A stretch of 64,000 bases of DNA from Kordiimonas gwangyangensis DSM 19435 = JCM 12864. Lineage in GTDB: Bacteria > Pseudomonadota > Alphaproteobacteria > Sphingomonadales > Kordiimonadaceae. A program made the translations under genes and the position numbers. Below, in pieces: positions 2,396 to 53,634 of the stretch. The DNA is taken from assembly GCF_000375545.1 (NCBI RefSeq), contig NZ_AQXF01000001.1:989241-1053240 (forward strand), given 5' to 3'. The notes under the pieces are model-generated. The model did not search any database. It had not been told where the DNA came from and worked only from the letters and a program-made list of their open reading frames with translations. Numbering within the stretch: the first letter of the stretch is position 1; every line of letters starts with the position of its first letter.

Positions 2396-5300
2396 TTAAA
2401 GCTCGGTCAAAATGACTTTAACGCGGTCGAGGAGCTCGTTGATCAGCGCGCCATTGTGGCGACCCTCAACAAAGCTCGCGCGTATCTTGAGGCAGCTCTT
2501 CTCAACACTCAGGTGCACCTCCACTTCGGCGGAGCGAGGCAAATCATCCGGGGCAAAGCGCTGGTTAAGTTGGCTGGCGTTGAACTCAAAGTCACCATCT
2601 GTGCGGGGCAATATTTGGCCGAGATAATTGAGCCGCAGTGCCGTCACCTGCTCGTCTGGATACGGGAACGACGGTGCGCCGTGTGCCTGTGCCGCCAGCC
2701 AGTCATAGGTAACACCGCCATGCGGTACCTCTGCGAGCGCGCTGGCGACACTTTTGGCTGTGTGAGGTAAGGTTTCACCAGTTTTGACCACCAGCGGGAA
2801 ATGCACAGCGAAGTTGCCCACTGTGTCGGTGAAGTCCGGCAGGTTGCTGCCCAGCACGCGGCCCATCATGCGGTGGCTTATGATCGCATCCCGCCTGCCG
2901 GATTGCTCAGTCAATGCCATGTAAAATGCCGCAGCCAGAAGCGGGTAGAGTGCGGTGCCGCTATTGGCGCGCCCCGTGGTGGACAGCCTTTTGGTTTCGC
3001 TGGCAGTGAGATATCTCTCTGTCGCGACCTCCTGGCGTTCGAGGTTCGCTATGCCGCGGTCGGTAACCAGTGCCGGAGGTGTGGTTTCCCGGCCGGCAAG
3101 TTTTTGCCAGTAAGCCTGGTCGGCGCTCAGGTCTGTGCCTTCCAGCAGTTTGGCAATGTCGCCCTGCTGCTGTGCAGGGGGCGCGAGTTCTTTGCCCTCG
3201 TAGAGATCCCAAAAGTCCTTGAACAGGATGGTACCGGAGACAAAATCACCATTCACATGATGGTTTGCCAGGCAGAAGGTATAGCGCGCCGGTCCTTCCT
3301 GAAGGATCACGGCGGTATCAAGCGGCAGCCGGTCAATGGCGTATGCCATGCAGCAGTTGTGCATCGTTTCGGCGATCATGTCCTCGCGCTCGTCACCTGG
3401 GGTGGCCTGAACATCGATAATGCGCAGGTCAAGCGACCCAGCCTCCGAAGGCGCGATGACGCGGCGGCGCCAGCTGCCGTCAACGTTTTGTGCATACACT
3501 GTGCGGAGCGCATCATGACGGGCGGCGAGGGTCGCAAAAGCAGCCTTCACGCGGTCCATATCAAGGGCACGGTTTACAGTGAACCGGCTGGTACCCCACC
3601 AGCGGTAGGGCGCCGGGAAATGCTGCAGCATCCAGCTTTGTGCGGGTAGAAGGCTGCAGCTTTCGACTGCTGTTGGGGTAAATTCACCAGCCTGTACTGC
3701 ACGCCGGTCCAGCTTGCCGTTTGCATTGATGGGCAGTTGCGCATGCAGCGTGACCTTATGCGGCACCATATAGTGCGGTAGTTTTTTCGCGCAGTGTTCA
3801 AGATAGCTTTGCTGGTCCTCTCCGTTCCCCGCGATATGGGCAACCAGGGCATCATTCTCGACCAGCACAGCAACCTGCCTGACATCGGCATGATCGCTCA
3901 GCACTGCTTCAATCTCGCCAAGTTCTATCCGGTAGCCGCGCAATTTGACCTGGCTATCCAGACGCCCGAGGTGGTCATAGGCACCGCCCGGCAGGCGGCG
4001 CACAAGGTCGCCAGTCTTGTAGAACCGGCGGGCGCCATGGCCGTCCGGGTCGATCATCATGAAGGCTTTGCTGGTGAGGTCTTCAGCATGCAGGTAACCG
4101 TCCGCGAGTTGAACACCGCCGATGAACAGCTCGCCGTCTTCTCCTTCCGGCACTGGTTTCAGGCTTGCGTCGAGGATGGTCAGTTCCACGTTATCGGTTG
4201 CCCAGCCAATGGGAACACGCGCCCAGTTTTCAGGCGGGGCCTCAGCCACTACTTGGCAGGTCACATCAATCGAGGCTTCGGTCGGGCCATAAAGGTTCGC
4301 GAGGCGCGCCCTTTTGCCAAAAAGCTCGAACCATTTGCGGGCCTGCGCAACGGGGAAGGCCTCGCCTGAAAGCACAACCCAGCGCAGATGGTCGAATGGC
4401 GCGTGCGGTGCATCTGCGTCAAGCACGCTTAGAAATTCACCAAACATGGAGGGCACGAAATGCAGCACGGCGATTTTTTTGTCCCGCATCGCCTGCGCGA
4501 GTGCCCAAGGGTCGCGCGCAACCTCTGACCCAACAGTATGCAGGATACCGCCGTACATAAGGGGCCAGAATATCTCCCACACAGATACGTCGAAGCAAAT
4601 TGTGGTTTTGTGCAGCACGCCCTCGCCCGGCTTCAATTCGAACTGTTTCTGGTGCCATGCCAGCCTGTTGGCATAGCCCGCGTGGTTCAGTTGTACGCCC
4701 TTTGGTCGTCCGGTTGAGCCTGAGGTATAGAGCACGAGCATGGCATCTTCTGGCGCCGCAGTCGGCAGCGTGTTTTTGGGTGCAGGCGATGTGGCAAACG
4801 CTTCGGACACCAACGCCACTTTTGGCTGGCCGCTTTCACCTGCGGCGCTGCCGTTCAGTAGATTTTGGTGAACCGGTTTACATAGCACAAGCGCGAGCTT
4901 CGCATGGTCCGCGATATAGCCCAGGCGGTCTGTCGGCAAGCTCGGGTCCAGGGGAACATAGACAAGGCCCGCCCGCAGCACACCAATTACTGAAGCGATG
5001 AAAGCACACCCACGGTCCATCAGAATGCCAATGCGTGCACCGCGCTCACAGCCTGCCTCAATCAGGTAGCTGGCGATGCGGTGGCTCTTGTCATCAAGCT
5101 CGGCATAGGTCAGCTGGCCATTTGCGCTAGTGACCGCCACAGCATCGGGTGTTGCCGCCATTTGTTTGATAATGCGGTCGATCGGAAGCTCATCATAGTC
5201 ATAAGCAGCGGCGCTAGCGCCTTCCTCCCCCGCAGTGGGTGGCACATCACTCCCGGTATCAGGCGTATCGACACCGTCGTCCGCACACATCAAGTCCGCC

Positions 5301-11300: not shown

Positions 11301-14300
11301 ACGGCACTTGGTTTTTTGGCGCGGCACGACGGCAAATCAAGCGGCCTTACGTCGCGCCGCAGGTGCTGTGTCCAGAAGGCGTGATCTCTATCTGCAGTAC
11401 CACTTTGTCGGTAGTTCTCTTCGTCTGTAACAAACTCGCTATAGCTTGCGTCAAGCGGCGCCAGTGAGCGCCCGCCCAGCAGCTGCTCCAGTTCGGTCAT
11501 CAGGATACGCAGGCTGATACCGTCCATGGCAATGTGATGGAAAACACACAAGAGGTGCGGCTGCCCATTCCAATCCGGGATATAGTCGAACCGGCAGGGG
11601 GCCTCGGCACGCAGGTCAAAGGGCGCACGCACCCGTTCCCGTAGCGCGTCGAGGGTGTCTTCTTGCGCTCGACTGGCGGGCAGCGGCAGAGTTCTCAGCG
11701 CGGGGCGAGCAGCGACAGAACGCCTGATTACATTGCCTTGCGCATCCTCGTCAAAGCAGTGGTGCAAGCTTTCATGGCGGGCAACCAGTGCATCTATTGC
11801 GGCCTCCAGCTGCGCTATATCTACCTTGGTGCCAAACCGAATGAAAACGGGCATATTGTATGCGAACGACGACGGCGCCAGGCGGTAATGCCGCCAGATT
11901 GGGAGCTGTTGTCGCGAGGCGAGAAGTGGACCATCTGTGCGCGCGGGTTCCGGCGCATCTTCTGGTTTGGGGGCCGGGCGGCTAGCGAACAGGCCGTCGA
12001 TAAGCGTCCGCAGTTGGCCGACGGTCTTACATTCGACAAGGCGTGCCGTGGTGACTTCCGTACCTGTGCGTTCGGTGACCAACTGGGAAAGGCGCGCCGC
12101 AGTCAAGGAATTGAAGCCAATTTCGTCCAGCGTATCTACGTCATCCGGATGTGAATCGCCTTCCAGCGCTTCAAGGAGAAGGTCTGCAGCGGTGGTGCCC
12201 TCGGCCCGGTTCGCACTGGCTAATACATGAGGCGTTTCGGTCAGTTGATGAAGGAGCGGTGCATCCGCTGGGCCGTAGGCCACGCCAACAATAGCTTCAC
12301 CGGAGGCGAGAATACGGTCAAAAGCTTCAAACCCGATAGCCTCAGGAAGTGCCTTGAGGCCTGTTTTTCGAGCCAGGCGGCCAAGCTCACCCGCAGGCGG
12401 TGCCATGCCAATGCCGTCCCACAGGGGCCACGCGACCGATTTCCAGTTCTCTTCCTCAAAGGCGACAGCATCCTCAAAGGCATTTGCGGCGGCATAGGTC
12501 GCCTGACCCGGATTGCCCATCCAGGCCGCGAGGGATGAGAAGGTCACAACCAGTGGGCGGCGTTCAAGGCTCTTGATGGCGGTGCGCAAGGCTGCAACAC
12601 CACCAACTTTGGCATCAAGCACGCGCTCAATCGCGAGCCTGTCAGCAGACGATAAAAGCTGGTCATCCTGTATGCCTGCACAGTGTGCTATCAGGTCGAT
12701 CCTGCCGCTGTGCCCCTCAATATCCTGCAGCAGGGCAGTCATGCCCTGTGGATCGGCGATATTCTGCGAACGGTAGGTGACTTTTGCGCCGAGTGCTCGA
12801 ACTGCGTTAAGAGCGTCCCGTAGTGTCTCGTCTTCCTGACGACGGCCTACCAGGGTCAGCGCCACCTCGCCTTTGCGCGCTAAATGTTTTGCGAGCGCGA
12901 GACCAAGTCCACCTGCTCCGCCCAGTATCACCGCCTGTTGGTAGGCTTTTACTTTGCCTGAAAGCAGGTCCGTCGCCTCAAGGCCGAGAACCTCGAAACC
13001 CGTTGCTTGTTTGCGCAGTACAGACCCTGGCTTGACGGTCGGTATGTGCACTTCTGAGATGGTGCTTTCGTCAACAAGGACACTGCCGCAGTCACGGGCG
13101 AATTCAGTGGCCGCAGTACGCAAAAGTGCTGCGACTGCCATGCCTGTGGCCAGGTCCGCAGTTCGGTATAGCCGCGCTTCACCAGCACAGGCCAACCGGG
13201 CGACTTCTTCCAGAAGCACACCGAGGGACTTTTGGGTTGCAAGGTCTGTGGGCGATTGGGGTGTAGCTGTCGCGCCAGCCAGGGCATGCCAGCTTGGTCG
13301 CAGGTAGGTTTGCCTGTCAGGTGACGGGGCTACTTGCGCGCCAGCATCATGGCGGTGGTCGACCCAGTACCGTGCGCCGGTGAAAGTGTAGGCGGGGAGT
13401 TCAATTTTCTGAGGGCGATGCTTGTCAGCCCAAAGGGCTTGCCACGGAATGTCGACGCCGTCCTGCCAGATGGCAGCAAGAGACCCGAGGTCACCATCCG
13501 CGAGCATGGAACGTATCAAACCCGGTCCACTGGTTCCGCTTAGCAAGCGGCGAACGGAAGCAGGTATGTTGGAAGACTTGCCAGACTGTTCGGCCTTACC
13601 GCCAAGGAAGGCAGCAAGCGCTGATTTCAGTTCCTGAAGCGAACTGCAGACAAAAGCATGGCGACATGCCATGGCGTCCCGCCCGGTCTGAAGCGTGTAA
13701 GCAATCGCTGCCAAACTGACAGCGGGTCTGTGGTCCGCCACTGCGTGCAGGGGTTTGTGCATGCTCGCGAGTGCTGCGGCGACATCACGTACGGTATTTT
13801 CCACCGTTACTTGGTCGCGCGACAGGGCGCCCGGGTAGGTCTGTGACAGCTTCTGCACCAGCTGACGCATTTCAAGGAAATCGAGGCCGAGTTCGGCGAA
13901 GGCCTCGTCGGGGTCTATTGCATTCTCAGGGATATGCAGCATGTCAGAGAGATGTGATGTGATGTGCGCGATCACTTCGGCATGGTCAACCGCTGGCGGG
14001 TGCATAGCCTGCGGCGTGTCGGCTGCATGTATCTCAAGCCATGTGTGCATATCCTGAGCGCGCCGCCGCAGGTCGTCATTCGACCGCGCGGACAAGGGGA
14101 TCAGATAGGCACTTGTGTCGGCCGTATTATCGGTCGCGCGTGGCGCAGGTTCACCCGCGATCACAACGTGCGCGTTGGTACCGCCGAACCCGAAGGAGCT
14201 GACTCCAGCTATCAGTTTTTCGCCCCGTAGTGTTTTCCGGCTTGACGCGAGCTCAAGCGGCGTACCAGCTGTTTCGATATCCGGGTTGAGGGCACCGAGG

Positions 14301-38604: not shown

Positions 38605-38619
38605 ACATCTATTAGATGT
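38605..38619. promoter_or_regulatory. Perfect 7-bp inverted repeat ACATCTA-T-TAGATGT in the AT-rich leader upstream of the megasynthase operon; candidate operator
   Basis: Palindrome read directly; sits in a 210-bp AT-rich intergenic region between the SnoaL-like gene and the megasynthase start. Confidence 0.3.
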
Positions 38620-39023: not shown

Positions 39024-39026
39024 TCG

Positions 39027-41028: not shown

Positions 41029-41032
41029 GCGT

Positions 41033-42292
41033 TTATGCTCCCAAATCTGGTTGATCAAGCACAATGGCGGCGTTGAACCCGCCAAAGCCGAAGCCATTAT
41101 TCAATACCCGGCCAATGGACAGGCTATCACGTCTTTCCCGCACATGGTCAAGCAGCGGCGCGATAGGTTCAAGGAGGCCGGGGCTGCCGTGCAGGAAACC
41201 TTGCTCCATCTGCACTATCGCGGCTACGGTCTCCAGCACTCCGGCGGATGTCAATCCGTGCCCGAGGACGGCTTTGGGGGCGGTGACCGGTGTGCGGGCA
41301 TCCACCACTGCGGCCAAGGCCTCCGCCTCGGCACTGTCGCCAGCGGGTGTGCCGGTTGCATGGGCGCTGACCATATCAGGCTTGCGCGCACCTGCCATGG
41401 CAAGGGCGTTGCGCATAACCCGCACAGCTGTTGCACAGTCGGGACCCGGCTCAACTGAGCGGTGCATGGCGCTGGCCCAGCCGGAAATCCTGGCTTTTAC
41501 CTTGGCGTTGCGTGCTTGTGCGTGAGCTGCTGTTTCCAGAACGAGGGCTGCTGCGGCTTCTGTCGGCACGAAGCCCGCAGCGCCGGTGTCAAATGCCCGG
41601 CATCCGGCAGCAAGTGTGTCTTCGCTACCGTTGGCCAGTGCGCCCAAGGCTTGATATCCCGCGACTTCGAGCGGCGACAGTATTGTTGGCGCACCCACAA
41701 CAAGGGCTAATTCAGTCTCGCCACTCCGCAGTGCGCGCACCGCCTGCAGGATGGCGATATGGCCGCTGGCTTGCGCGCCGCCCACAACGGCACCGTCACC
41801 AGCAATCCCGAATACAGCGCTCAGGAGCGACACGAGAAACGAGTCGTGCCCCATCTGCATCAGCCGTCCAGCGGATAGTCGGCCCTCACTTGTGAACGCC
41901 TCACTTGCAGACAAAAGCACTTCGTTTGCCGTATTCTGGCCGGCCACAAATACGCTGGCGTCCTCCGTGACAGGTCCCATGGGCAACGCGGCATCCTGCC
42001 ATGCCTGAAGCGCGGCGGTGAGGCCCGCCCGTGGGCCGTTTGCAGCGGCACGGGTCAACCGCCGAACCTTTTTCGCGGTGTCGTCGTCAAAAAGGGATTT
42101 GGCAGCGGTTTCCGGGTCAGGATCAGGCATAATGCCTGCAATCCACGGCTCCAGGACGCGTGGGTCGGTGCGCCGGGTGAGGTGGTCAAGGTTTGCGGTT
42201 TGCAGGCGGTCGGACAGTTCAGCGCAGTTGGTGCCAACGGCACCAAACACGCCGCACCCTGTAATAACCAGCTCCCCCAAGGCGTCTTGCAT
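41033..42292 (-). CDS. Decarboxylating ketosynthase of the HCS cassette (PksF/CurC-like; active-site Cys replaced by Ser); start ATG 42292 overlaps the ACP stop (TGATG)
   Basis: GGAQASGHIAIL where KS normally has TACSSS; His motifs HATGT and VLGHGLTSAG retained. Confidence 0.8.
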   Translation of the reverse strand: MQDALGELVITGCGVFGAVGTNCAELSDRLQTANLDHLTRRTDPRVLEPWIAGIMPDPDPETAAKSLFDDDTAKKVRRLTRAAANGPRAGLTAALQAWQDAALPMGPVTEDASVFVAGQNTANEVLLSASEAFTSEGRLSAGRLMQMGHDSFLVSLLSAVFGIAGDGAVVGGAQASGHIAILQAVRALRSGETELALVVGAPTILSPLEVAGYQALGALANGSEDTLAAGCRAFDTGAAGFVPTEAAAALVLETAAHAQARNAKVKARISGWASAMHRSVEPGPDCATAVRVMRNALAMAGARKPDMVSAHATGTPAGDSAEAEALAAVVDARTPVTAPKAVLGHGLTSAGVLETVAAIVQMEQGFLHGSPGLLEPIAPLLDHVRERRDSLSIGRVLNNGFGFGGFNAAIVLDQPDLGA

Positions 42293-42534
42293 CAGGCGTT
42301 GGCGTCCTGAATGATGCGCGCAATATCGGCGATGCATTTGGCGGGCGCAAAGCTTGTCATGGGGATGTTGGCCGAAACCTCATTCTGGGCGGCCATGATG
42401 ACATCGATGCGGTCCATGGAGTTAAGCCCAAGCTCGACCAGGCTGTCGGTGCCGGAAATATCGGTGTCTTCAAGTTCTGGCAGCAGGTCTTTGATTTCCG
42501 CCACCATTACCTTGATCAATTGGTCTTCAGTCAC
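42292..42534 (-). CDS. Discrete acyl carrier protein (AcpK-like donor ACP of the beta-branching cassette)
   Basis: 80 aa, LVELGLNSMDRIDV phosphopantetheine-site motif; ATGA-type overlap with the upstream AT-ER gene. Confidence 0.8.
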   Translation of the reverse strand: MTEDQLIKVMVAEIKDLLPELEDTDISGTDSLVELGLNSMDRIDVIMAAQNEVSANIPMTSFAPAKCIADIARIIQDANA

Positions 42535-44867
42535 GAGGGTGCTCCCTGCCCAAGCTTGTTATCGCTATGTTTGCTGCCCGACAGACGCGCGCGGGCCTCA
42601 CCCATCAAACGCATCGCAATGTCCGCGCAGTGACGGGTGCGCCAGTCGGTGAGATTATTCTCCCGCGCCCATGAGTTAAAGGCAGCAAGTGCCGGGCCGC
42701 TATGAAGCTGGTAGTTCACTTTGCCCGAGGCATCACCATCTAGCGCGAGGTCGGCGCTATATTTGAAGTACCAGCGGAAAACGAGCGCCATTTTCACCTT
42801 CGGCCGGGCCTTGGCACGTTCCAGGAGGTCCGGGTCGGTACGCGAAAGCCATTCGACAACGCCCTGCCATACGTCATCGAATGAGCGCATGAAAAAGCGA
42901 TCCTCGACTTGGGTGCGTACGTCCGGCGGCAAGTCATCAAGTGAGTCATAGTGGCGGTAGAGTTGGTAAAGCCGCTCCGCGCGGGCGGCAAAAAAGCTTC
43001 CCTTGCGCACGACTTGTGCCTTCGCGCCAATTTCGAACATGTCGCCCGCGGGCGCGTAGGCAAAGTCACCAATATCCAGCGCTTGAAGCATGTCTTTTGC
43101 CGTCGGGCTCATGCCGGATTCCGTGGTGCACTGGTTGATGGAGCCAGTCACGATATAGTCTGCACCGAGCGCAACCGCCGCGACGATTGCCTCCGGTGAA
43201 CCGATACCACCCGCAGCGCCCACATGGATATGATGGTCGGGAAATGTTTTTGCCGCCTCCGCGCGAACGCGCAGGAATGTGGGGATCAGTGTGAAGGGCG
43301 AAGCTTGGTCTGTGTGGCCGCCACTATCACTTTCTGCCGTCAGGTCGTCTATCACTGGCATGTGCTCAGCCACATAAGCGGCTTCCTGATCCAGAAGGCC
43401 GTCTGCAATCAGGCTGTCCAGCATGGCAGCAGGTGCTGGTGCGAGGAACTGGCGCGCCACTTCGGGCCTTGACGCTTTCAGGATGACCCGCCGCACACCT
43501 TGAAACGATCCGTCGGACGCGCGTTTTGCACCCGCGTAGCGGTAATAGACCAGCGCGCGGCTCAGCGTTACAAAGGCGGAAGCCTCAACAACCGGTACAT
43601 CCTCCGCGACATAAAGCTTTGCAAGCGCCAGCTCTGCCTGCGGGGCATCGGGGTGGCTCAACAGATTTGCGCCCCAGTTGCGTTTCGCGCCAAGGGCAGC
43701 TTTGATCTTCCCGATGTTATCCTGAACATCCCGCGCCGGCATGCCGCCAGTGCCAAGGAAGCCCATACAGCCTGCATTTGCCATGGCAATTACCATGTCA
43801 GACGACGCGATACCGCGGTACATTGAGCCGGTGACATAGGCATGCTCAAGACCATAACGCTCCATGAATGATGGTGCCCCAATGGGGCTTTCTGTCGCGG
43901 CTGTATCAGCAGGCCGCGTGGCTTTTTTGGGCTCGATGGAAACCACTTTCGCGCTCGGCCTCATCTCTGGCGCTGGTGCAGGCGCGCTGACAGCGGCTTT
44001 GGGCGTGGGCGCAGCAGGGGCCGGGAAGTCTTTCAGCATACGCGTTAGCACGACGCCGGGGCCAACTTCTATGAAGTCCCTTTCGCCGATGCTGTGCAGA
44101 TAATCCACGGTATCCCGCCAGCGTACCGTGCCGGCAATCTGGCGCGAAAGCAGTTCGCGAACAATGGCTTGCGTGTCGCCGTTTCCATAGGGTCTCGCGG
44201 TCACGTTGGCGATCACGGGGATGCGCGGCTGCGCAAAATTTGTATCTTTCAGGAAATCAGCGAAGGCTTTTGCGGCGTCTTCCATAAGTTGCGAATGGAA
44301 GGCTGCGGATACATTCAGCGGAATCGCTGTGATTTCCTCAGTCTCACATACTTTCGCACAGTCCATGATCTGGGATTTTACGCCGGACAGTACGGTTTGT
44401 TTGGGGCTGTTCAGGTTCGCGATATCGATACCACCGAAGCCGTGACGCTCGAGAAACGGCTTTAGCGCCGCTTCATCCTGGCCAATGATGGCCAACATGC
44501 CGCCTTCGGACGCCTCGGCCATAAGTTGCCCCCGTTTTTTTACGAGGCGCAGGCCTGTGGCAAAGTCAAACACCCCGGCTGCGAACAGGGCTGCATACTC
44601 GCCCAAGCTATGGCCTGCGACAAAGTCAGGCTCAGGCTCGCCGTCCGCGTGACGCGCGAGCACGGATAGCGCACAAACGGTATAAAGTGCAGGTTGGGTA
44701 TAGTCGGTACGCCGCAATAGACCGTCGCGGTCATGGCGGCAAAGGTCAGCAATTGAGTAGCCGAGAACCTCATCCGCTTGGGCGGTCTCAACGGGGAACC
44801 GGTCAAACAGGTCGTCGCCCATGCCTTTCGCTTGGGCACCTTGCCCCGGGAACATCCAGACTGTCAT
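42531..44867 (-). CDS. Trans-acting acyltransferase (malonyl-type, GHSLG, AAFHS) fused to PfaD/nitronate-monooxygenase-like trans-enoylreductase (PksE/BaeE-like)
   Basis: N-terminus FPGQGAQAKGMG, GHSLGEYAALFAAG, SAAFHSQLM; C-terminal half YVTGSMYRGIASSDMVIAMANAGCMGFLGTGG TIM-barrel FMN ER pattern. Confidence 0.85.
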   Translation of the reverse strand: MTVWMFPGQGAQAKGMGDDLFDRFPVETAQADEVLGYSIADLCRHDRDGLLRRTDYTQPALYTVCALSVLARHADGEPEPDFVAGHSLGEYAALFAAGVFDFATGLRLVKKRGQLMAEASEGGMLAIIGQDEAALKPFLERHGFGGIDIANLNSPKQTVLSGVKSQIMDCAKVCETEEITAIPLNVSAAFHSQLMEDAAKAFADFLKDTNFAQPRIPVIANVTARPYGNGDTQAIVRELLSRQIAGTVRWRDTVDYLHSIGERDFIEVGPGVVLTRMLKDFPAPAAPTPKAAVSAPAPAPEMRPSAKVVSIEPKKATRPADTAATESPIGAPSFMERYGLEHAYVTGSMYRGIASSDMVIAMANAGCMGFLGTGGMPARDVQDNIGKIKAALGAKRNWGANLLSHPDAPQAELALAKLYVAEDVPVVEASAFVTLSRALVYYRYAGAKRASDGSFQGVRRVILKASRPEVARQFLAPAPAAMLDSLIADGLLDQEAAYVAEHMPVIDDLTAESDSGGHTDQASPFTLIPTFLRVRAEAAKTFPDHHIHVGAAGGIGSPEAIVAAVALGADYIVTGSINQCTTESGMSPTAKDMLQALDIGDFAYAPAGDMFEIGAKAQVVRKGSFFAARAERLYQLYRHYDSLDDLPPDVRTQVEDRFFMRSFDDVWQGVVEWLSRTDPDLLERAKARPKVKMALVFRWYFKYSADLALDGDASGKVNYQLHSGPALAAFNSWARENNLTDWRTRHCADIAMRLMGEARARLSGSKHSDNKLGQGAPS

Positions 44868-45709
44868 GGTTCCGTCTCCCCACAGATATTGCGTGCGCCA
44901 AGTGAAGAGCTAAGCATGTTAGCAGCGCGCGAGAGGAAGTTGCTGTCGGTCAGCACTGACTGGGAGGACATAACAAGCGCCAGAACGACGCCATCCTTTA
45001 GCACAGCCTCGCCGGCAAGATGCCCCGCGTTCACGAATGTGCAGTTTACGGTGTCGCCGGAGAGGCTTGGGACCGTTTCAAGTGCCTTGAAATCAAGGGC
45101 CAGCCCGCCGCCGAGAATTTTTGATGCCGCCTCTTTCAAGGCCCAGAGCGCGGTGGCCGCATTTAAGGCGCACGGCGCATTTTCACACCATTCGCGTTCC
45201 CGCGCTGTGAGTTGGCTTTCAAGGGCAGGCCTGTTCTGTGCGGATACCGTTTCAATATCGATCGCAACCGGCCATTCTTGCGGGGAAGACACCGCAACCC
45301 CTGCCTCATTGCTGTGGCTGATGGAAACATGCACGGGGGGCTTCTCGCCGCCCCGGTAAGCGGCAACGGGTTGATTGAATACGCCGCTACGGATGTCCCA
45401 CTTTGTGGGAGCACCACCAAACGCCTTACAGAGCGCTATTTTCGCGGTAGCCCTGCCGCGCAGGAAACTGGTGCGGCGGCGGTCGAGCTTCATGGCTGCC
45501 AAAGCCTGTGCTTCAGCAGGCGCGAGAAAGTCGGATTGTGCGCGGGACAGTGCTGATAGATCGGCTTTTGTCATCGCCAGCGAGAGCTGGCCGGTTAGAT
45601 CGGTGCGTGCGTCGCTATATCCGCAGCTGAGCGCGAGAACTTCAAGGGTGTCCGACCAAATTTGGGCACCGGACAGCTGGCTGGCCGTGTCATCCACAAG
45701 GCTAAGCAT
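44864..45709 (-). CDS. 4-phosphopantetheinyl transferase, Sfp/EntD type
   Basis: Motifs VSISHS, VAIDIE, WALKEAASK; overlaps neighbours on both sides. Confidence 0.8.
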   Translation of the reverse strand: MLSLVDDTASQLSGAQIWSDTLEVLALSCGYSDARTDLTGQLSLAMTKADLSALSRAQSDFLAPAEAQALAAMKLDRRRTSFLRGRATAKIALCKAFGGAPTKWDIRSGVFNQPVAAYRGGEKPPVHVSISHSNEAGVAVSSPQEWPVAIDIETVSAQNRPALESQLTAREREWCENAPCALNAATALWALKEAASKILGGGLALDFKALETVPSLSGDTVNCTFVNAGHLAGEAVLKDGVVLALVMSSQSVLTDSNFLSRAANMLSSSLGARNICGETEP

Positions 45710-47849
45710 TCACCGCCTCGCCGGTCTGAACCCGCCACAGCTCGGCATAAATGCCGTTTTGTTTGATGAGTGCATCGTGGGTGCCGCTTTCGACAACATT
45801 GCCGTGGCTCATAACATGAATGCAGTCTGCATTGCGCACGGTCGAGAGGCGGTGCGCAATCAAAATGGCGGTGCGGTCTTTTGCAAATGCGTCGATGGAG
45901 CGCTGGATCGCGGCTTCGGTTTCATTGTCGACCGCGCTTGTGGCTTCATCGAAAATCAGGATGGGCGCGTCTTTGAGTATCGCGCGCGCAATCGCAATAC
46001 GTTGCCGCTGACCGCCGGAGAGCGCCTTTCCGCGCTCGCCAATTTTGGTCTCGTAGCCTTGTGCGAGATCAACGATGAATTCGTGTGCTTCGGCGGCCTT
46101 TGCTGCCTCAATCACCTCTTCATCGGTTGCGTCCGGGCGGCCAAACAGGATGTTTTCACGCACACTCATATCGAAGAGGAAAGTTTCCTGGCTCACGGTT
46201 GCGATATTGCGGCGAAGATCAGTCAGGTTGGCCTCGCGGAGGTCAAGGCCATCAAGCTCCACGGCACCATCCAGTGGGTCATAGAAGCGGTTGATAAGGC
46301 GGATGACAGTAGACTTGCCGGCTCCCGTCGAGCCAACGATGGCGACGGTTGAGCCCGCAGGGATCTCCATGTTGAAATTCTCGAGCACTTTCCTGTCAGC
46401 GCTATAGCCGAAGTCCAGATTGCGGAAGGTGATTGCACCAGCGACGCTCTCACGCGGCAGGTGAACAGGGCCGGAATGGATTTCAGCGCTCGCACCCAGC
46501 TCATCAAGGATTGCGCGCGCGGACTGGTTGGCCAGTTTGTACTGGTCGTAGCTCACACCCATGCCTTCCATGCGCACCAGAAGTTTTGGCACGAAGAAGA
46601 GGATGAGCGTGAACATGCTGGCTGTGATGGATTTGCGCGCCACAAGGAAACCGCCGATCATGACAGCCAGTGCGAAGGACACGGAGATCAGGAGGCGCAT
46701 CAAGTCAGTGTATTGTGAGCTGGTCTCATGCGCCATCGATGACGTATCACGCACCTGCGCGCTCAAGGTGTTCAGCTTCTCAGCTTCAATATCTTCCGCG
46801 GTGAAACTCTTGATCACGGAAAGGTCAATCAGATTTGCAGACAGGAACTTCTGGATAAGTTCCTCGCATTTCTGCTGGATCGCATAGGGTTCTTCGACCC
46901 GTTTGGATACATAGCGCGAACCCGCAATGATTATTGGCAGCGGCGCAAGGGTGGTCAGCGCCAGAAGCGGTGACACAAAGCCAAGCGTTGCGACAATGAT
47001 CACGGCAACAAAAATGCGCTGTAGCATGTCATCAGCGCCGGATTCCATGAAGGTCCTGATCTTGCCTGTCGCGTCCCACAGCAGGTTCAAATGCTCGCCT
47101 GAACTCTTGCGGTCAATGTGCGCCATATCCATGCGCTGCAGGTGATCGTAGGTTTCGGTCCTGACTTCATGTTCCATCATGCGGGCGAGGTTGCGCCACT
47201 TGCGGCGTTTGTTGCGTTCGACATAAAGCTCGAACGCAAATGCTGCACCCGCAGCCAAGCCCATGGTCAACACCTGACCGCGAATAGTCCCCAAGCCGAT
47301 CTTGGTCAGAAGGCCAATTTTCTTGCCATTCACGATGTTGACAATGGCAATAAGCGCGAGCTCCGGCGCGAAGTTCACCAGCGTATTGCCAAGCGAATAG
47401 GATGTCGCTTTGACGAATTCACGTTTGTCCGGCGGAAACTGTTTCAACAGCTCACGGAATGCGCCGTCCTGCGGGCTGTTGGCCTTCAGCGGATTCGTGA
47501 CTTGCTTGAGTGCAGGCAGGAGCTGGATTGGTTCCGTGGAGAGTTCGTCCGGCCCCATGGTGATTTTGGTGCGGATTTCCTCCAGTAGCAGCTTGTGCAG
47601 GGCAGCACGGATTTCCGGCTCGATCTGCGCAGCGGGCACCTTTACATCGCGCAGCAGTATGCGACCGGTCCGCGGATTTGCCTCGGCATGGCCAACATCA
47701 TCCTTGCCGCCCATGATCATGCTTAGCCGCGCGGCGAGGACCGGTCGGCCGATCAGGTGGCGGCTCTGCCACCGTTGGCGCGTGGACCCAGTACCGGTCA
47801 CCGACGTGAGCGAGAGATTAAGGCGATCTCTAAGAGCTGCTGCTGTCAT
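45702..47849 (-). CDS. ABC exporter, fused permease-ATPase (MsbA-like) with ~130-aa N-terminal extension
   Basis: Six-TM region then GSTGAGKST (Walker A), LSGGQRQRIAIARAIL, ILIFDEATSAVD, AHRLST. Confidence 0.85.
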   Translation of the reverse strand: MTAAALRDRLNLSLTSVTGTGSTRQRWQSRHLIGRPVLAARLSMIMGGKDDVGHAEANPRTGRILLRDVKVPAAQIEPEIRAALHKLLLEEIRTKITMGPDELSTEPIQLLPALKQVTNPLKANSPQDGAFRELLKQFPPDKREFVKATSYSLGNTLVNFAPELALIAIVNIVNGKKIGLLTKIGLGTIRGQVLTMGLAAGAAFAFELYVERNKRRKWRNLARMMEHEVRTETYDHLQRMDMAHIDRKSSGEHLNLLWDATGKIRTFMESGADDMLQRIFVAVIIVATLGFVSPLLALTTLAPLPIIIAGSRYVSKRVEEPYAIQQKCEELIQKFLSANLIDLSVIKSFTAEDIEAEKLNTLSAQVRDTSSMAHETSSQYTDLMRLLISVSFALAVMIGGFLVARKSITASMFTLILFFVPKLLVRMEGMGVSYDQYKLANQSARAILDELGASAEIHSGPVHLPRESVAGAITFRNLDFGYSADRKVLENFNMEIPAGSTVAIVGSTGAGKSTVIRLINRFYDPLDGAVELDGLDLREANLTDLRRNIATVSQETFLFDMSVRENILFGRPDATDEEVIEAAKAAEAHEFIVDLAQGYETKIGERGKALSGGQRQRIAIARAILKDAPILIFDEATSAVDNETEAAIQRSIDAFAKDRTAILIAHRLSTVRNADCIHVMSHGNVVESGTHDALIKQNGIYAELWRVQTGEAVNA

Positions 47850-48257: not shown

Positions 48258-48665
48258 CTAGTCAGCTTTTGCCTTGCGGGTACGTGCCGGCCGTTTTGCT
48301 GCTGGTTTTTTGGCCGGCGCCTCGACTGTCACGCTTTCGTCGGTGATTTCCGCGGCGGTTGCGCGCTTGGCGTGGTAACGGCTTTTCTGGTCCGTGTAGA
48401 TTTCTGAAACATGGTCCCAGATGTATTTGTTGGTCAGCGACTTCGAGAAGGAGTCAGCAGCAACCAGCGCAAGGCCAAACGGGCCAAGCAGCGCTTTTGC
48501 GCCAAGACCAACGACTGCGTGGGCCGCACCGTTCACAACCTTGCCGTCCATCATCAGGCTCGCGCCAGGTAGCAGAGATTCGCCTACAAGTTTAGCGCCG
48601 TTCGAGAGCACTGTCATATTCTGAGTGTCAGCCATTGTTTGATATCCGTGTGATTGAAGGCTCAA
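48258..48665 (-). CDS. Hypothetical protein with Gly/Ala-rich core and Lys/Arg/Ala-rich C-terminal tail (alternative ATG at 48635)
   Basis: ORF only; weak ribosome-binding sites; tail PAKKPAAKRPARTRKAKAD resembles histone-H1-like tails. Confidence 0.25.
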   Translation of the reverse strand: MSLQSHGYQTMADTQNMTVLSNGAKLVGESLLPGASLMMDGKVVNGAAHAVVGLGAKALLGPFGLALVAADSFSKSLTNKYIWDHVSEIYTDQKSRYHAKRATAAEITDESVTVEAPAKKPAAKRPARTRKAKAD

Positions 48666-48720
48666 TGTTAAGGACTAAAAGCACAACATATTGGATTTTA
48701 GCTAATCATGTCCTCCCTCA

Positions 48721-49372: not shown

Positions 49373-49416
49373 GGTTTGTCACGCGGTGTGGGGCACAGGA
49401 TGGGAGTCCCCCGGTG

Positions 49417-50445
49417 ATGAGCCAGCAATCATCAGCTAAAACAGTTCTGCTTTTTGCGGGGCAAGGTAGTCATTTTCCGAAAATGGGGTCAGCAGCATTT
49501 GAGGCGGACCCCGTTTTTCGGGACAGGCTATTTTATGCCGATCGCTGCGTGCGCCGCCGCACCGGGGTAAACCTGATCGAGACCATTTTTGGCCCGTCCG
49601 AAGACTGGCTGAACGATATTGCCGTCACCCATCCGGCTATTTTCGCACAGCAATGGGCGGCGGGGGAGAGCCTGAAAAAACGGGGCGTACGGGTTGACGC
49701 GTGTTTAGGGGCCAGCCTAGGCGAATTTGTGGCGCTTGTGCATACCGGAGCCGCGACGTTTGAGCATATTCTCGACCTGATTGTTGGCCAAGCCAGCGCG
49801 GCAAGTAAAATCCTGGAGCCGGGCGGCATGATGACTGTCCTGGCGGGTGCAGGGTTTTTTCATGAGAACCCGGACATTTTTAAAGGCTGTGCGCTCGCGG
49901 CGGATAACTTTGAGCGGCATATCGTGGTGTCCGGTACGCGGCCATCAATTGAGGCTTGCCGTGCAGCGCTCGATAAAATCAGTGTGCCAGCGTTCCTGCT
50001 GAATATTCCGTTCGGATTTCATGGTCCTGCAGTCATGGCCATGCGGCCGGGATTTGATGCAATTGCCTGTGAGATCAGCTTGGGCGGTACAGCATGTCCG
50101 GTGTACGGCTGTAGCCTTGCAGGTGAAAGATGGTATCCGGACGTGGAAAATCTCTGGCGGATCGTAGAAGCGCCCATTCACTTCTCTACAACTGTTTCAA
50201 AGGTTGAAGCCGACCTGAACAGGCCGCGCTACATTGACTGCAGCCCCAGCGGTACGCTTGCCACTCTCCTTCAATATGTTTTGGGTCCCTCAGAACGGGG
50301 GCGGATCAGCGCGCTCTACTCCATGGGCGAAAATTCATCGCCTCTCTCAACGGGCGAGCAAATGGCGGTAAATTCGACGATGGCACCTCAAAGCGCTTGG
50401 CATAACGTGGAAAAAGAGACAGAGTTGCAGGGACTTAGCAGATGA
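49417..50445 (+). CDS. Second acyltransferase-like protein (malonyl-CoA:ACP transacylase fold) with atypical GASLG and FGFHG motifs; possible acyl hydrolase/proofreading or loading AT (GTG at 49414 also possible)
   Basis: LLFAGQGSHFPKMG, CLGASLGEFVALVH, NIPFGFHGPAV. Confidence 0.7.
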   Translation: MSQQSSAKTVLLFAGQGSHFPKMGSAAFEADPVFRDRLFYADRCVRRRTGVNLIETIFGPSEDWLNDIAVTHPAIFAQQWAAGESLKKRGVRVDACLGASLGEFVALVHTGAATFEHILDLIVGQASAASKILEPGGMMTVLAGAGFFHENPDIFKGCALAADNFERHIVVSGTRPSIEACRAALDKISVPAFLLNIPFGFHGPAVMAMRPGFDAIACEISLGGTACPVYGCSLAGERWYPDVENLWRIVEAPIHFSTTVSKVEADLNRPRYIDCSPSGTLATLLQYVLGPSERGRISALYSMGENSSPLSTGEQMAVNSTMAPQSAWHNVEKETELQGLSR

Positions 50446-50461
50446 TCGCGTCAGATTTAAA

Positions 50462-52126
50462 ATGAAAACAATGTCTCCAGCAAACACGCCAGCCACCCCT
50501 ACCACCAGCTTTATAACGCTGCTGTTGGGTCGGCATAACCGCAACAGAGTTTATCTGCTCGCGTGGCTTTTAGCGGCTGCGCTTTCAAGTGTCGCGACCA
50601 TTGCGCTCGTCACATCCACCGTCGCGGGTGGCACCGAAAATGGTGTCGATTTCCAGTCGCTCGGCATGTTCCTGATCATTGCGGCCGTGTTGATCTACAG
50701 TCAATTCAATGTCACCGGTCTGACGGTTGACACTTGCGAAACCGCCGTCGAAATCCAGCGGCGCGAATTTGCGCTTGCGATCCGCTACGCAGATCTGAAG
50801 ACGGTCGAGGCTCTCAGCACCACCAAGCTCTATGGGCTGTTGAACCGCACTACGGCAATCCTGACCGAAGCCGGACCCCCTGTCATATTTGCGCTGATCA
50901 CCGGCGGAGTGACCACCTGCATTGGCCTCTACACGCTTTACCTGTCGCCGCTGACCTTCATTGTGATCATTGTCACGGTCGCCGCGACCGCCTTCGTCGC
51001 GCGCTACTACATCGAGAGTGCAGCGCCTGACGTCTACAAGGCGCAGGTCACCGAACGTACCTACATGAACCTCTTCATCCAGCTTCTGGATGGGTTGAAG
51101 GAAGTGAAGCTCAACGGTCGGGCGGGGGATGATCTGCAGACCAATTATATCTCGGCAGCCGCTGCAAAAACCCATGCGGAGAAAGACAGCGCCTCCCGTA
51201 CCTCAAGCAAAGCCTATATGACGATCTATGTCGGCTTTTATGTTCTTGTTTCCGCCATCGTCTTCGCGGTGCCTCAATATATCGATAGCGCGGAAACGGT
51301 CAGCAAAATCACCTACATCGCCATTTTCCAGATCGCGACGCTGAACATTGTGCTGCGTGCGATTCCCATGCTCTCGCGCGCCAATCAGGCGTTGGCGGAG
51401 CTTGAACAGGTGAAAGCAACCCTGCGCGATGCCCGTCAAGGTGATGGGGCGGATGTTGCGGCGCTGGCGAGCTTCAAATCCATTGCGCTGGAAGACTGTA
51501 CGGTATCCTTTGATCCGCGCGGGGGAGTACCTGGGTTTGGCCCCGTGTCCGTTAAATTTGAGCCGGGCCAGATCATCGCGGTCAATGGTCCAAACGGATC
51601 CGGTAAAACCACCCTGTTGCGTTTGATTTGCGGGCTTGTTCATCCCGGCAGTGGCCGTCTGCTTGTGGATGGTGAAGAGTTGCATGAGAACCAAGGAAGC
51701 GCCTACCGCAGCCTGTTTGCCGCTGTTTTTCTCGATAGCCACCTTTTCGACCGGTTTTACGGGGTGAGCGAAGAGGAAAAGCAAGCTTTCTACGAGACAG
51801 TGGTTGAGCTTGGTATTGATGAAGGCTTGGTGGCCACGGCCGCGGATCTCAAGCGTCACTTCTCACCGGCTCAAAAGCGCCGGCTTATGCTGGCGTTCGC
51901 CCTGGTTCAAAAACGGCCCGTGCTTATTCTTGACGATATTGAAGCCGGGCAGGATGAGTGGTTCACAAACAAGCTGCATAACGACATACTGCCACGCCTC
52001 AAGCAGGCAGGAACAACCGTTGTGCTGGCGGTTCACCGTGAAGGTGCCCTGACAGAAATGGCTGACCAGATTATCAACCTCCGCCCGCAACCGGCGGGGC
52101 CAACACAGACCGAGAATTCTCTATGA
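50462..52126 (+). CDS. ABC transporter of the cyclic-peptide-exporter (SyrD-like) family, permease-ATPase fusion with degenerate signature motif
   Basis: TM domain then GPNGSGKTT, SPAQKRRLMLAFAL (in place of LSGGQ), LILDDIEAGQDE. Confidence 0.8.
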   Translation: MKTMSPANTPATPTTSFITLLLGRHNRNRVYLLAWLLAAALSSVATIALVTSTVAGGTENGVDFQSLGMFLIIAAVLIYSQFNVTGLTVDTCETAVEIQRREFALAIRYADLKTVEALSTTKLYGLLNRTTAILTEAGPPVIFALITGGVTTCIGLYTLYLSPLTFIVIIVTVAATAFVARYYIESAAPDVYKAQVTERTYMNLFIQLLDGLKEVKLNGRAGDDLQTNYISAAAAKTHAEKDSASRTSSKAYMTIYVGFYVLVSAIVFAVPQYIDSAETVSKITYIAIFQIATLNIVLRAIPMLSRANQALAELEQVKATLRDARQGDGADVAALASFKSIALEDCTVSFDPRGGVPGFGPVSVKFEPGQIIAVNGPNGSGKTTLLRLICGLVHPGSGRLLVDGEELHENQGSAYRSLFAAVFLDSHLFDRFYGVSEEEKQAFYETVVELGIDEGLVATAADLKRHFSPAQKRRLMLAFALVQKRPVLILDDIEAGQDEWFTNKLHNDILPRLKQAGTTVVLAVHREGALTEMADQIINLRPQPAGPTQTENSL

Positions 52127-53634
52127 CTGCCGAAGCGACAAGCACACCGACACCGCCAGCCAAGAAAGCTCGCAGGAAATCACCGCCGAAACATATGGTG
52201 CATGTCATTGGCACCATTCTGGCGATCGGGTTTCTCCTGCTGGTGTTCTGGCGCTATATATTTGTGACCATTCTGCCCGGTAACGTGGGCGTTCTCTACA
52301 GCTGGCTTTTTGGCGGTACCCAAGTCTATTCGGAACTGGGTGAAGGCTTCCACATGAAGCTGCCGTGGAACAGGATCTATGTTTTCGAGACCCGGGTACA
52401 GGCGGCAAATGAAGAAGTTCTCGCGCTCAGTGCCGAAGGTATGGAAGTCCGTGTGAAACTGTCAGTGCTTTTCCGGGTGAAAAGCGACCAAGCTGGTGAG
52501 TTGTTGCAGGGTATCGGACCAGAGTACCGCGAACGTGTTGTCATTCCGCTGACAACAGGTGCGGTGCGGGAAGTACTGTCGCGCTACAATTCAGTTGAGC
52601 TCTATACCAGCAACTACAAACAGCTGGAAAATGACCTCTACCAGATTGTGAAACTGTCTGAATATTCCCAGTATTTTGAATTTACAGACCTCATCATCCG
52701 CGAAATTATCATTCCGCCAGCTATCGCGAACTCTATCGAGGAAAAACTGGTGCAGGAACAAGTTGCTGCGTCCTTCACCTTCCGCCTCGAAGCTGAGCGG
52801 CAGGAGGCGGAGCGGCTTCGGATCAAGGCGCTTGGGGTACAAAACTTCTATTCGATTGTCTCCGGCGCGCTTAACAAAAACCTGCTGACATGGCGCGGCA
52901 TTGAAGCAACTGTGGAACTGGCGAAATCGCCAAACTCCAAAGTCGTAATTGTCGGCTCAGGTGAAAAGCAGTTGCCGCTGATCCTCGGCAGCGACATCCA
53001 TAACCTGCAGCAGGCACCACCAATCAAATCAATGTCTGAGTCAGACGCACCGGCGCTCGATTTTGAGAATCTGCCGCAACTTTTCCCGGAAGATGAGAGT
53101 TCAACAACCGGCGTACAAAAGCCAGCGACTGGCGTTGAAGGCGACGGATCGAAAAAAACAAAGCCGGCAGGAACTCAGCCCGAGGGGGCAGGCCATACAA
53201 AGGCGCAGAAGGTTGACGCCACGAGTGCTGAGGCCGATGGCCTCATTGCGCCAAATGAGGTCGCTGACGGGTTGACCGACACAACAAATACGGACGGCAT
53301 GTTGGCGGAGAAGAATCAGAACGATGGCCTGACCAGCCCAACAGACATCAACGAGGGCACACGGTCGCAGCCAGCTGCGCTGGTTAATCGGCAAATTTCA
53401 GAATCAAACCCCTATTCAGCAGGGCTCACATCCAACAGTCTAGGAGCGAATATCATGCTTCCCTTCCTTCTCGTTATCTATCTGTTCCTGTGTATCGTTG
53501 TTGCCTATTACGGCCGTCACCGCCGCTTCGGATTCGCAGGGGTGTTTGCCATCAGCATTTTGCTGACTCCCTTCCTCGTATTCCTGCTGTCGATCGCGCT
53601 GGATGATGATCACCGGGTGAAGAACAAGCGCTGA
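52123..53634 (+). CDS. SPFH/band-7 (prohibitin/stomatin-like) membrane protein with N-terminal TM, SPFH domain, ~150-aa low-complexity region with xDGLxxxxxx repeats and two C-terminal TM helices
   Basis: ATGA start overlap with the ABC gene; SPFH pattern GNVGVLYSWLFGG...MEVRVKLSVLFRV...coiled-coil; C-terminal LPFLLVIYLFLCIVVAYY and FAGVFAISILLTPFLVFLL. Confidence 0.8.
   Translation: MTAEATSTPTPPAKKARRKSPPKHMVHVIGTILAIGFLLLVFWRYIFVTILPGNVGVLYSWLFGGTQVYSELGEGFHMKLPWNRIYVFETRVQAANEEVLALSAEGMEVRVKLSVLFRVKSDQAGELLQGIGPEYRERVVIPLTTGAVREVLSRYNSVELYTSNYKQLENDLYQIVKLSEYSQYFEFTDLIIREIIIPPAIANSIEEKLVQEQVAASFTFRLEAERQEAERLRIKALGVQNFYSIVSGALNKNLLTWRGIEATVELAKSPNSKVVIVGSGEKQLPLILGSDIHNLQQAPPIKSMSESDAPALDFENLPQLFPEDESSTTGVQKPATGVEGDGSKKTKPAGTQPEGAGHTKAQKVDATSAEADGLIAPNEVADGLTDTTNTDGMLAEKNQNDGLTSPTDINEGTRSQPAALVNRQISESNPYSAGLTSNSLGANIMLPFLLVIYLFLCIVVAYYGRHRRFGFAGVFAISILLTPFLVFLLSIALDDDHRVKNKR

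Follow-up and report, generated by a model that had tools for sequence, protein, structure and literature searches.

A trans-AT polyketide synthase-nonribosomal peptide synthetase cluster of Kordiimonas gwangyangensis with a complete beta-branching cassette and a serine-specific C-PCP-A-C terminus

A single contiguous gene cluster for a hybrid of polyketide synthase (PKS) and nonribosomal peptide synthetase (NRPS), of the kind whose acyltransferase (AT) works in trans, occupies about 2396-53634 of the DNA considered here, a 64,000-nucleotide stretch of the marine alphaproteobacterium Kordiimonas gwangyangensis DSM 19435 (contig NZ_AQXF01000001.1, positions 989,241 to 1,053,240; below, the window). 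Two megasynthase open reading frames (ORFs), both on the minus strand and both uninterrupted, make up most of it: A (19578-38606, 6342 aa) and B (2396-19585, 5729 aa), which overlap by 8 nt and are translationally coupled. They are preceded in a minus-strand operon by genes for, in order, a DUF6072 protein, an ABC exporter, a phosphopantetheinyl transferase (PPTase), a fusion of AT and enoylreductase (AT-ER), a free acyl carrier protein (ACP), a free ketosynthase (KS), an HMG-CoA-synthase-like protein (HCS), the crotonase ECH1 and a SnoaL-like protein; the DUF6072 gene is the probable first gene. Divergent genes on the plus strand encode an AT-like protein, a second ABC exporter and an SPFH protein. 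Families were assigned from Pfam and NCBIfam scans (Table 1). A preliminary description, made from the letters and ORFs alone, had placed a trans-AT PKS-NRPS hybrid of ~51 kb here, and the ORFs and Pfam tiling bear it out. The evidence set out below supports the view that this is a real, intact and uncharacterised system of its type, with a complete HCS beta-branching cassette.

The domain strings come from Pfam scans of 20 tiles spanning both megasynthases, and reproduce those given earlier. With KR for ketoreductase, DH for dehydratase, ECH for crotonase, MT for methyltransferase, and C, A and PCP for condensation, adenylation and peptidyl carrier domains, protein A reads KS1-[~300 aa]-ACP, KS2-DH-KR-ACP, KS3-(ACP-like)-ECH-ACP-ACP, KS4-DH-KR-ACP, KS5-KR-MT-ACP, and protein B reads KS6-DH-KR-ACP, KS7-(ACP-like)-KR-ACP, C-A-PCP, KS8-ACP-ACP, C-PCP-A-C, or ten modules over the two proteins. 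There are eight in-line KS domains, five in A and three in B; the preliminary description had counted nine in the megasynthases, although its own string lists eight, and the ninth is free-standing. Its statement that the catalytic Cys and both His motifs are intact holds for every in-line KS (Cys, HGTGT and xxGH in 8/8, MAFFT), and so does its statement that no cis-AT is present, as Acyl_transf_1 matched none of the 20 tiles. Flanks of the AT-docking type, RhiE-like_linker or CurL-like_PKS_C, are seen behind six in-line KS domains, the exceptions being KS5 and KS8 with KAsynt_C_assoc only. Thus KS modules devoid of an AT, a discrete malonyl AT and trans-acting partners are all present, as in AT-less modular PKSs. 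No thioesterase (TE) is present in the cluster. The ~300-aa extension after KS1 closes with the LPxYPF post-linker motif and recurs, conserved, in Breoghania sp. L-A4 (L071) and in a metagenome contig (L074). A conserved GHQ raised the idea of a vestigial AT, which is not supported: hhalign against an AT alignment gave a probability of 0.5%, and Pfam and NCBIfam gave no match.

The DH domains have their His and DxxxQ motifs, and all five KRs carry the Asp typical of B-type reduction; Tyr and Lys are kept in the KR of module 2 and in KR6. KR6 (15446-17665) has Gly-Gly near the catalytic region where the other four have Ser-Ser, and may be impaired, leaving a ketone in place of a predicted double bond. 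Twelve carrier domains keep the phosphopantetheine Ser. The two ACP-like inserts, labelled ACP0 earlier, lack it (GLDM and GLDF); they lie between KAsynt_C_assoc and the RhiE-like linker of KS3 and KS7 (29577-31436 and 13586-15445).

The two NRPS modules announced in the preliminary description are likewise present, one of Gly type and one of Ser type. Their A-domain codes, extracted against a GrsA fragment and its numbering, are DILALGVIWK (module 8) and DVWHVSLIDK (module 10), and agree with the earlier assignments. The former matches 8/10 positions of the Gly code and is thus Gly-like; the latter reads as a Ser code. The motifs of the three C domains are HHIAMDG, EHCVSDG and HHVNGDF. Module 8 is a canonical C-A-PCP with HHxxxDG, A core motifs and the PCP Ser. 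The final module departs from canonical NRPS order: it is C*-PCP-A-C, C* being the domain with EHCVSDG, and there is no PCP between the A domain and the last C.

The HCS cassette has all five parts: donor ACP, a KS of the decarboxylating type (KSQ), HCS, ECH1 and an in-line ECH2. The free KS had been called a Cys-to-Ser variant. This is not so: the residue at the catalytic Cys position is Gln (MAFFT, and alignment to FabB 3lrf), both His are kept, and the protein would be a KSQ-type, non-condensing decarboxylase. The HCS gene probably starts ~20 codons downstream of its ORF start, because relatives are 410-417 aa long and cover 93-95% of the ORF. Where does the cassette act? ACP3a and ACP3b have as best solved relatives the beta-branching ACPs of mupirocin, virginiamycin, curacin and PksL. 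At the Trp-flag position (Ser+6, read from 2L22 and CurA alignments) both have Leu, where the virginiamycin ACP has Phe; the Trp flag is not universal among beta-branching ACPs (PMC10006238). ACP9a and ACP9b, on the other hand, resemble the ACPs of fatty acid synthases (FAS) and PigH. We therefore assign beta-branching to module 3 only, and the tandem ACPs of module 9 are disfavored as a second site.

The remaining trans partners were listed correctly in the preliminary description (AT-ER, PPTase, ACP, HCS, ECH1 and two ABC transporters), though the SnoaL-like and DUF6072 proteins, both conserved in relatives, were omitted. AT-ER has the motifs GHSLG and AAFHS, and the discrete ACP possibly carries the starter as well. 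The SnoaL-like gene is the best-conserved accessory gene of the family. Its product weakly matches the indanomycin cyclase IdmH, and one may speculate that it is a cyclase that cyclises or isomerises the polyene. The "second AT-like protein" of the earlier account does match Acyl_transf_1, but its best solved relative is PksD, a bacillaene acylhydrolase homologue (E 2.4e-35; true ATs ~1e-17), and it is probably a proofreading acylhydrolase. The second ABC exporter has a 39% homologue in Breoghania, divergent beside DUF6072. The SPFH gene is translationally coupled to that ABC gene; its membership of the cluster is uncertain.

Table 1. Modules and genes of the cluster (positions in the window; L071 is Breoghania sp. 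L-A4, L072 and L074 are metagenome contigs).
Feature	Position	Strand	Remarks
PKS A module 1: KS1 (DAACASS) - ~300-aa extension - ACP1	35517..38606	-	no loading module, no KR
PKS A module 2: KS2-DH-KR-ACP	31437..35516	-	Pfam tiles
PKS A module 3 (beta-branching): KS3 - Ser-less ACP-like insert (GLDM) - ECH2 - ACP3a - ACP3b	27747..31436	-	
PKS A module 4: KS4-DH-KR-ACP	23787..27746	-	Pfam tiles
PKS A module 5: KS5-KR-cMT-ACP	19581..23786	-	KR, Methyltransf_12/23, PP-binding
B module 6: KS6-DH-KR-ACP	15446..19585	-	KR6 Gly-Gly, Ser-Ser elsewhere
B module 7: KS7 - Ser-less ACP-like insert (GLDF) - KR - ACP	11966..15445	-	
B module 8: C (HHIAMDG) - A (DILALGVIWK, Gly-like) - PCP	8846..11965	-	canonical order
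B module 9: KS8-ACP9a-ACP9b	6971..8845	-	no KR
B module 10 (termination): C* (NEHCVSDG) - PCP - A (DVWHVSLIDK, Ser) - C (HHVNGDF)	2399..6970	-	
DUF6072 protein (135 aa)	48258..48665	-	PF19549, E 6.6e-23; 54% aa homologue at same position in Breoghania sp. L-A4
ABC exporter, fused membrane and ATPase parts (715 aa)	45702..47849	-	ABC_membrane, ABC_tran; 52% and syntenic in Breoghania
PPTase (281 aa; ACPS superfamily, Sfp-type by size)	44864..45709	-	ACPS PF01648; syntenic in L071, L074
AT-ER fusion (778 aa), malonyl AT and trans-ER	42531..44867	-	Acyl_transf_1, NMO, FabD_helical_ins; 51-53% in relatives
Discrete donor ACP of beta-branching cassette	42292..42534	-	PP-binding; same position in L071, L074
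Free-standing KS (KSQ-like)	41033..42337	-	Pfam KS N and C domains; NCBIfam PRK07103 polyketide KS
HCS (HMG-CoA-synthase-like)	39778..41097	-	Pfam and NCBIfam HMG-CoA synthase
ECH1 (dehydrating crotonase)	39027..39803	-	ECH_1, ECH_2; syntenic in L071, L072, L074
SnoaL/NTF2-like protein (121 aa)	38658..39023	-	Pfam SnoaL, E 9e-18; 69-76% identity in relatives
AT-like protein (GASLG)	49414..50445	+	Acyl_transf_1; homologue after A-C gene in a Breoghania metagenome-assembled genome
Second ABC exporter, cyclic-peptide/PvdE-like (554 aa)	50462..52126	+	ABC_tran; NCBIfam cyc_pep_trnsptr
SPFH/Band 7 protein	52123..53634	+	Band_7; retained next to the K. aestuarii deletion relic

How novel is the cluster? 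An exhaustive HMMER (phmmer) scan of 1.84 billion representatives, with the ~1200-aa KS8-ACP-ACP-C-PCP segment (KS8 to PCP10) as query, found just one protein that exceeded 46% identity, an NRPS of 2320 aa from K. aestuarii (68% by phmmer, 70% by MAFFT). For the A-C tail no relative above 48% was found. The tail and module 1 gave nothing above 44% in a word-indexed search that lists proteins of up to ~1800 aa, homologues of megasynthase size being outside its reach; the tail alone had no match among genome contigs, a collection in which the K. gwangyangensis genome itself is apparently absent or masked; and tblastn of a plasmid collection gave no close relative. The JCM draft of the genome (BAMR01000013.1) annotates the 5729-aa protein as many pieces of 156-2064 aa, presumably the result of sequencing frameshifts, and the 2064-aa piece is the 90%-cluster representative, so that full-length B is hidden from homology searches. 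HCS relatives of at least 58% identity were confined to metagenome contigs and Breoghania sp. L-A4. Best non-self identities were thus 68% for K. aestuarii (a relic, see below), 39-72% for Breoghania, and at most 46-48% for all else. No literature linking Kordiimonas or Breoghania to a polyketide or a trans-AT PKS was found, in a search that mostly did not reach subscription journals.

It might be argued that the cluster has already been linked to a known compound, or stands close to a characterised entry of MIBiG, and that its homologues escaped notice because the word-indexed search cannot see megasynthases. The exhaustive scan from KS8 to PCP10, however, turned up only the K. aestuarii relic above 46%, and the HCS, A-C tail and plasmid searches gave only unstudied relatives, about which the literature search was silent. 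We regard prior characterisation as very improbable. Indeed the homology searches produced no characterised cluster that combined more than 80% identity with a collinear domain order, nor did the representative, HCS, A-C tail and plasmid searches produce any characterised relative, in line with the preliminary description, which could match the locus to no known compound. None of the characterised lines that these searches could reach comes close to it; the kind of system, a trans-AT PKS-NRPS with an HCS cassette, is well known.

The closest likeness in gene order is found in Breoghania sp. L-A4 (CP031841.1, ~2.82-2.84 Mb), where the series DUF6072-ABC-PPTase-AT/ER-ACP-KS-HCS-ECH1-SnoaL-PKS recurs together with a divergent ABC gene. 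Modules 1-3 of this strain and of metagenome contigs are collinear with those of K. gwangyangensis, in the case of L074 at 42-46% identity. Amino acid identities in Breoghania are 39% for the 554-aa ABC protein, 41% for KSQ, 48-58% for the other accessory proteins, 71% for SnoaL, 54% for KS2 and 72% for a KS3 fragment. The Breoghania genes are called as fragments, and the comparison covers the upstream third of the line. One difference is that module 1 of the relatives has a KR, which the K. gwangyangensis module lacks. A separate contig from a Breoghania metagenome-assembled genome (L014) has the A(Ser)-C tail (48%), followed only by a homologue of the AT-like gene.

Other relatives are remnants. 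In K. aestuarii (JAOBPP010000021.1) the homologue of 53624-52408, in the SPFH gene, is joined directly to the homologue of 9450-2416; a 43-kb deletion has taken out the stretch that begins halfway into the Gly A domain and stops where the SPFH gene starts. What survives, 7 kb long, is one intact ORF of 2320 aa, a truncated A tail followed by PCP-KS-ACP-ACP-C-PCP-A-C. Compared with K. gwangyangensis, this termination half has dN 0.23, a saturated dS and every active-site motif kept, values that point to strong purifying selection; the module 10 cassette is 70% identical, again with all motifs. Unless the deletion is recent, the stump must still have a function. The metagenome contigs L072 and L073 (ERZ650162 and ERZ650159) have KSQ-HCS(77%)-ECH-SnoaL(76%)-KS1(73%) and then a SurA-like gene, so that the PKS ends after KS1; this is a second kind of relic.

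Is the K. gwangyangensis cluster itself silent or in decay, with no product at all? The family is prone to loss, as the last 7 kb of K. aestuarii and the metagenome relative that ends after KS1 attest, and in K. gwangyangensis module 1 has lost its KR and KR6 has Gly-Gly. Against decay, the ORFs of ~17 and ~19 kb are uninterrupted, with the catalytic motifs of KS, carrier, A and C domains all present. Near-identical copies of the cluster occur in several independent read sets (82,852-bp Logan contigs), and the HCS search gave a match at 99%. We therefore give decay hardly any credence.

The most unusual part of the line is its end, KS-ACP-ACP followed by C*(EHxxSD)-PCP-A(Ser)-C(HHxxxDF), with neither KR nor TE. 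The last 1500 residues, C*-PCP-A(Ser)-C, have full-length homologues in many cyanobacteria at 28-38% identity, either as a single protein ACP-C*-PCP-A-C (~1600 aa) or split, with an A-C protein of ~980 aa. The same cassette with the same unusual motifs occurs in Nostoc, Microcystis, Scytonema, Moorena and others: NEHxxSD in the first C, and HHxxxD plus a hydrophobic residue ([LMF]) in the last. A DIWHISLIDK-type Ser code is found in the ~45 members of the cyanobacterial-type A-C family that were checked, and the KS before the cassette lacks a KR in all three cyanobacterial-type contexts examined. The layout is ...KR-ACP-KS followed by ACP-C*-PCP-A-C in Nostoc and a JGI metagenome contig, and KS-AT-ACP-C*-PCP followed by A-C in Microcystis. 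The cyanobacterial copies differ from ours in that they end cis-AT lines, are sometimes divided between two proteins, contain only one ACP and lie among other neighbors (a halogenase, MFS or RND pumps). The Microcystis aeruginosa copy sits next to a flavin halogenase and an RND pump, and the 90%-identity cluster of its A-C protein has 310 members; the other loci of this type include those of Nostoc sp. FACHB-973 and a JGI metagenome. Literature searches found no published product of a cyanobacterial line with the cassette, and no relevant paper on the C-PCP-A-C layout.

The conservation of a KR-less KS, ACP, C*, PCP, A(Ser) and C as a set suggests that the substrate for release is a beta-ketoacyl-seryl thioester. 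Tentatively, and with the thought that we may well be wrong, we propose that ACP-C*(NEHxxSD)-PCP-A(Ser)-C(HHxxxD[F/L/M]) is a distinct and undescribed termination cassette, shared by cyanobacterial cis-AT lines and marine alphaproteobacterial trans-AT lines, which would make a Ser-derived head group (a tetramate, or a beta-lactone/gamma-lactam) by means of a PCP upstream of the A domain and a dedicated clade of C domains, and which would have moved as a unit between PKS types. Only the cassette may represent a genuine variant; the system is otherwise ordinary.

What would the assembly line make? Malonate would be loaded in trans by the AT. KSQ and the free ACP would furnish acetyl-ACP, which would feed HCS and probably also prime KS1. 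Modules 1-7 would then build a C16 chain with a distal keto group and three or four double bonds, a beta-methyl branch from module 3, an alpha-methyl carbinol from module 5 and a second carbinol from module 7. Module 8 would insert glycine, and module 9 would add malonate and, having no KR, leave a beta-keto group. C* would join the acyl chain to Ser on the PCP, the Ser being loaded by the downstream A domain, and the terminal C would cyclise the beta-ketoacyl-seryl thioester and so release it, most likely through a Dieckmann reaction that yields a 3-acyl-5-hydroxymethyl tetramic acid. A strictly collinear product would be about C25H34N2O8, ~490 Da by our own arithmetic, and tailoring by the trans-ER or the SnoaL-like protein may alter it; two ABC pumps would export it. 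The chemistry forecast in the preliminary description, a polyene-like chain with one beta-branch, one C-methyl, an internal Gly and a Ser at its end, does follow from the domains. The intact, overlapping ORFs, the purifying selection on the termination half and the gene order shared with Breoghania sp. L-A4 and metagenome contigs speak for a working cluster. For the scheme as a whole, that is, a functional assembly line, a polyene-Gly-Ser product and a cyclising release, we incline slightly to acceptance; both the starter and the point at which the trans-ER acts are guesses.

How the chain leaves the enzyme is the most delicate question. The KR-less last PKS module and the terminal C point to cyclisation and not to a free serine acid. 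The tetramate is favored by the precedent of EfiE, of the epifadin line of Staphylococcus epidermidis (pIVK83), which is KS-ACP-C-A-PCP-CT by Pfam: like our line it is a trans-AT system with a KR-less last KS-ACP, one amino acid module and a terminal C-like domain. Formation of the tetramic acid was assigned by the authors to this terminal domain, with malonomicin cited as a second bacterial case; the epifadin cluster also has ABC exporters and a PPTase, as here, and its product is reported as a peptide-polyene-tetramate (PMC11310079). The end logic of the epifadin/malonomicin type, that is, KR-less KS-ACP, amino acid module, terminal C-like domain and no cis TE, is present in K. gwangyangensis. 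The differences are considerable, however. EfiE has a canonical C-A(Asp)-PCP-CT, and the epifadin line uses iterative PKS modules, lacks an HCS cassette, begins with its peptide part and belongs to a Firmicute.

Several points count against the scheme just given. The terminal C and the CT of EfiE are only 20% identical (364 aa, E 1e-12, BLASTP), and the terminal C keeps HH where CT has NQ, so that the two may not be isofunctional. The closest solved relatives of the terminal C are the elongating C domains of PvdL, BacC and TycB, which fits an intermolecular condensation as well. KR6 lacks the usual Ser-Ser. Moreover, a KS followed by two ACPs in tandem is a layout that beta-methylation modules can have, virginiamycin module 5 being an example (PMC10006238), and were module 9 such a module, the ketone needed for cyclisation would be lost. 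Because of the low identity, the altered catalytic motif and the resemblance to elongating C domains, our belief in the Dieckmann release stops a little short of the halfway mark.

The same observations can be turned into a different account, in which the terminal C is an ordinary condensation or ester catalyst, yielding a macrolactone through one of the chain's own hydroxyls, using water or a free amine or alcohol, or handing the chain to an NRPS module elsewhere, and in which module 9 may provide a second beta-branch. The full HHxxxD, the similarity to the elongating C domains of PvdL and of the bacitracin and tyrocidine synthetases, the two carbinols and Ser hydroxyl that the predicted chain would offer, and the KS-ACP-ACP arrangement, which is the virginiamycin layout for beta-methylation (PMC10006238), are all compatible with it. 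Yet ACP9a/b are not of the branching type, unlike ACP3a/b, and a KR-less KS is tied to the cassette in three independent cyanobacterial lines, a coupling which suggests that the beta-ketone is part of the chemistry. As for a hand-over, the 64-kb window has no further NRPS gene, and the Breoghania contig L014 has only the AT-like gene after the A-C tail. We think this account rather unlikely.

The main alternative to the tetramate is a release in the manner of oxazolomycin, in which an aldol reaction would give a gamma-lactam and beta-lactonisation would then give a fused or spiro beta-lactone. The oxazolomycin (ozm) cluster of Streptomyces is likewise of the trans-AT PKS-NRPS kind; it has an AT-oxidoreductase, a Gly module embedded in a PKS protein and redundant ACPs (PMC9057759, PMC13056070), and there too a KR-less module precedes a terminal Ser module with a C domain and no TE. 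OzmK, which is KR-less, and OzmL, with Ser, a terminal C and no TE, are regarded as making the spiro-beta-lactone, and OzmH has redundant ACPs flanking reductive domains (module 9) (PMC9057759) that resemble the ACP-like inserts here; the end of our line, KS-ACP-ACP and C-PCP-A(Ser)-C with no TE, is comparable. The resemblance is one of logic only. OzmL, compared here by its published description, is C-A-MT-PCP-C with a His-less terminal C, against C-PCP-A-C with no MT and an intact HHxxxD here. There is no HCS cassette in ozm, and module number and order differ. The formyl-Gly oxazole loader and the methoxymalonyl genes are found in ozm only, no formyltransferase, FkbH-like or N-methyltransferase domain having been found in any ORF or tile of our sequence. 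Since loader, methoxymalonyl genes and OzmL architecture are all absent, the cluster does not belong to the oxazolomycin family, and we judge release by the oxazolomycin route quite improbable.

For the upstream part of the line, the likeness is to bacillaene (pksX/bae), virginiamycin M and kalimantacin. All are trans-AT systems with an HCS cassette (free ACP, decarboxylating KS, HCS and ECH1/ECH2), and they share as well the tandem beta-branching ACPs, a PksE-like AT-ER, a PksD-like acylhydrolase and an embedded Gly module. Those lines, however, finish with a TE (or Pro plus TE), start from loading modules and differ in their module strings, and the Ser of virginiamycin is internal and heterocyclised. 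None of the three is known to have the C-PCP-A-C terminus.

G+C content is 58-61% in the cluster and 49-55% beyond ~48 kb, a low-G+C region that carries a HipBA module, an integrase and an O-antigen ligase. Directly to the right of the cluster is a HipA/HipB type II toxin-antitoxin pair (54166-55736); an identical copy of HipA is annotated in K. gwangyangensis and a close one in K. lipolytica. Farther on (56778-62730, G+C 49-55%) lie a metallophosphoesterase, an RNase T-like exonuclease, an NAD-epimerase, a 501-aa ORF of the phage integrase family and the O-antigen ligase; the integrase ORF is called as 357 + 144 (or 117) aa in other assemblies, and this flank looks like a variable region. The 64-kb window has no tRNA gene flanking the cluster or elsewhere. 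At the other end, 200 nt downstream of the megasynthase, a gene at 860-2194 encodes a 444-aa protein with a C-terminal LCCL domain, the N-terminal 367 aa of which match no family in Pfam or NCBIfam. It gives no hint of a release function and is not found beside the K. aestuarii relic.

What does the cluster mean for its host and for PKS biology in general? Orphan trans-AT clusters are common, and this one overturns nothing in current understanding, being a system ordinary in kind. It is nevertheless an intact 50-kb pathway, apparently maintained vertically, with no characterised relative, from the Kordiimonadales, an order from which, as from Breoghania, no polyketide has been reported. The predicted scaffold, polyene-glycine-(tetramate or beta-lactone), falls into classes with potent though unstable antibiotics among their members, epifadin and the oxazolomycins being examples, and the cluster would be a reasonable target for genome mining in an unexplored order. 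The general point that reaches beyond this cluster is the recurring Ser-specific C-PCP-A-C termination cassette. Solving its chemistry once would supply an annotation for dozens of cyanobacterial and proteobacterial clusters.

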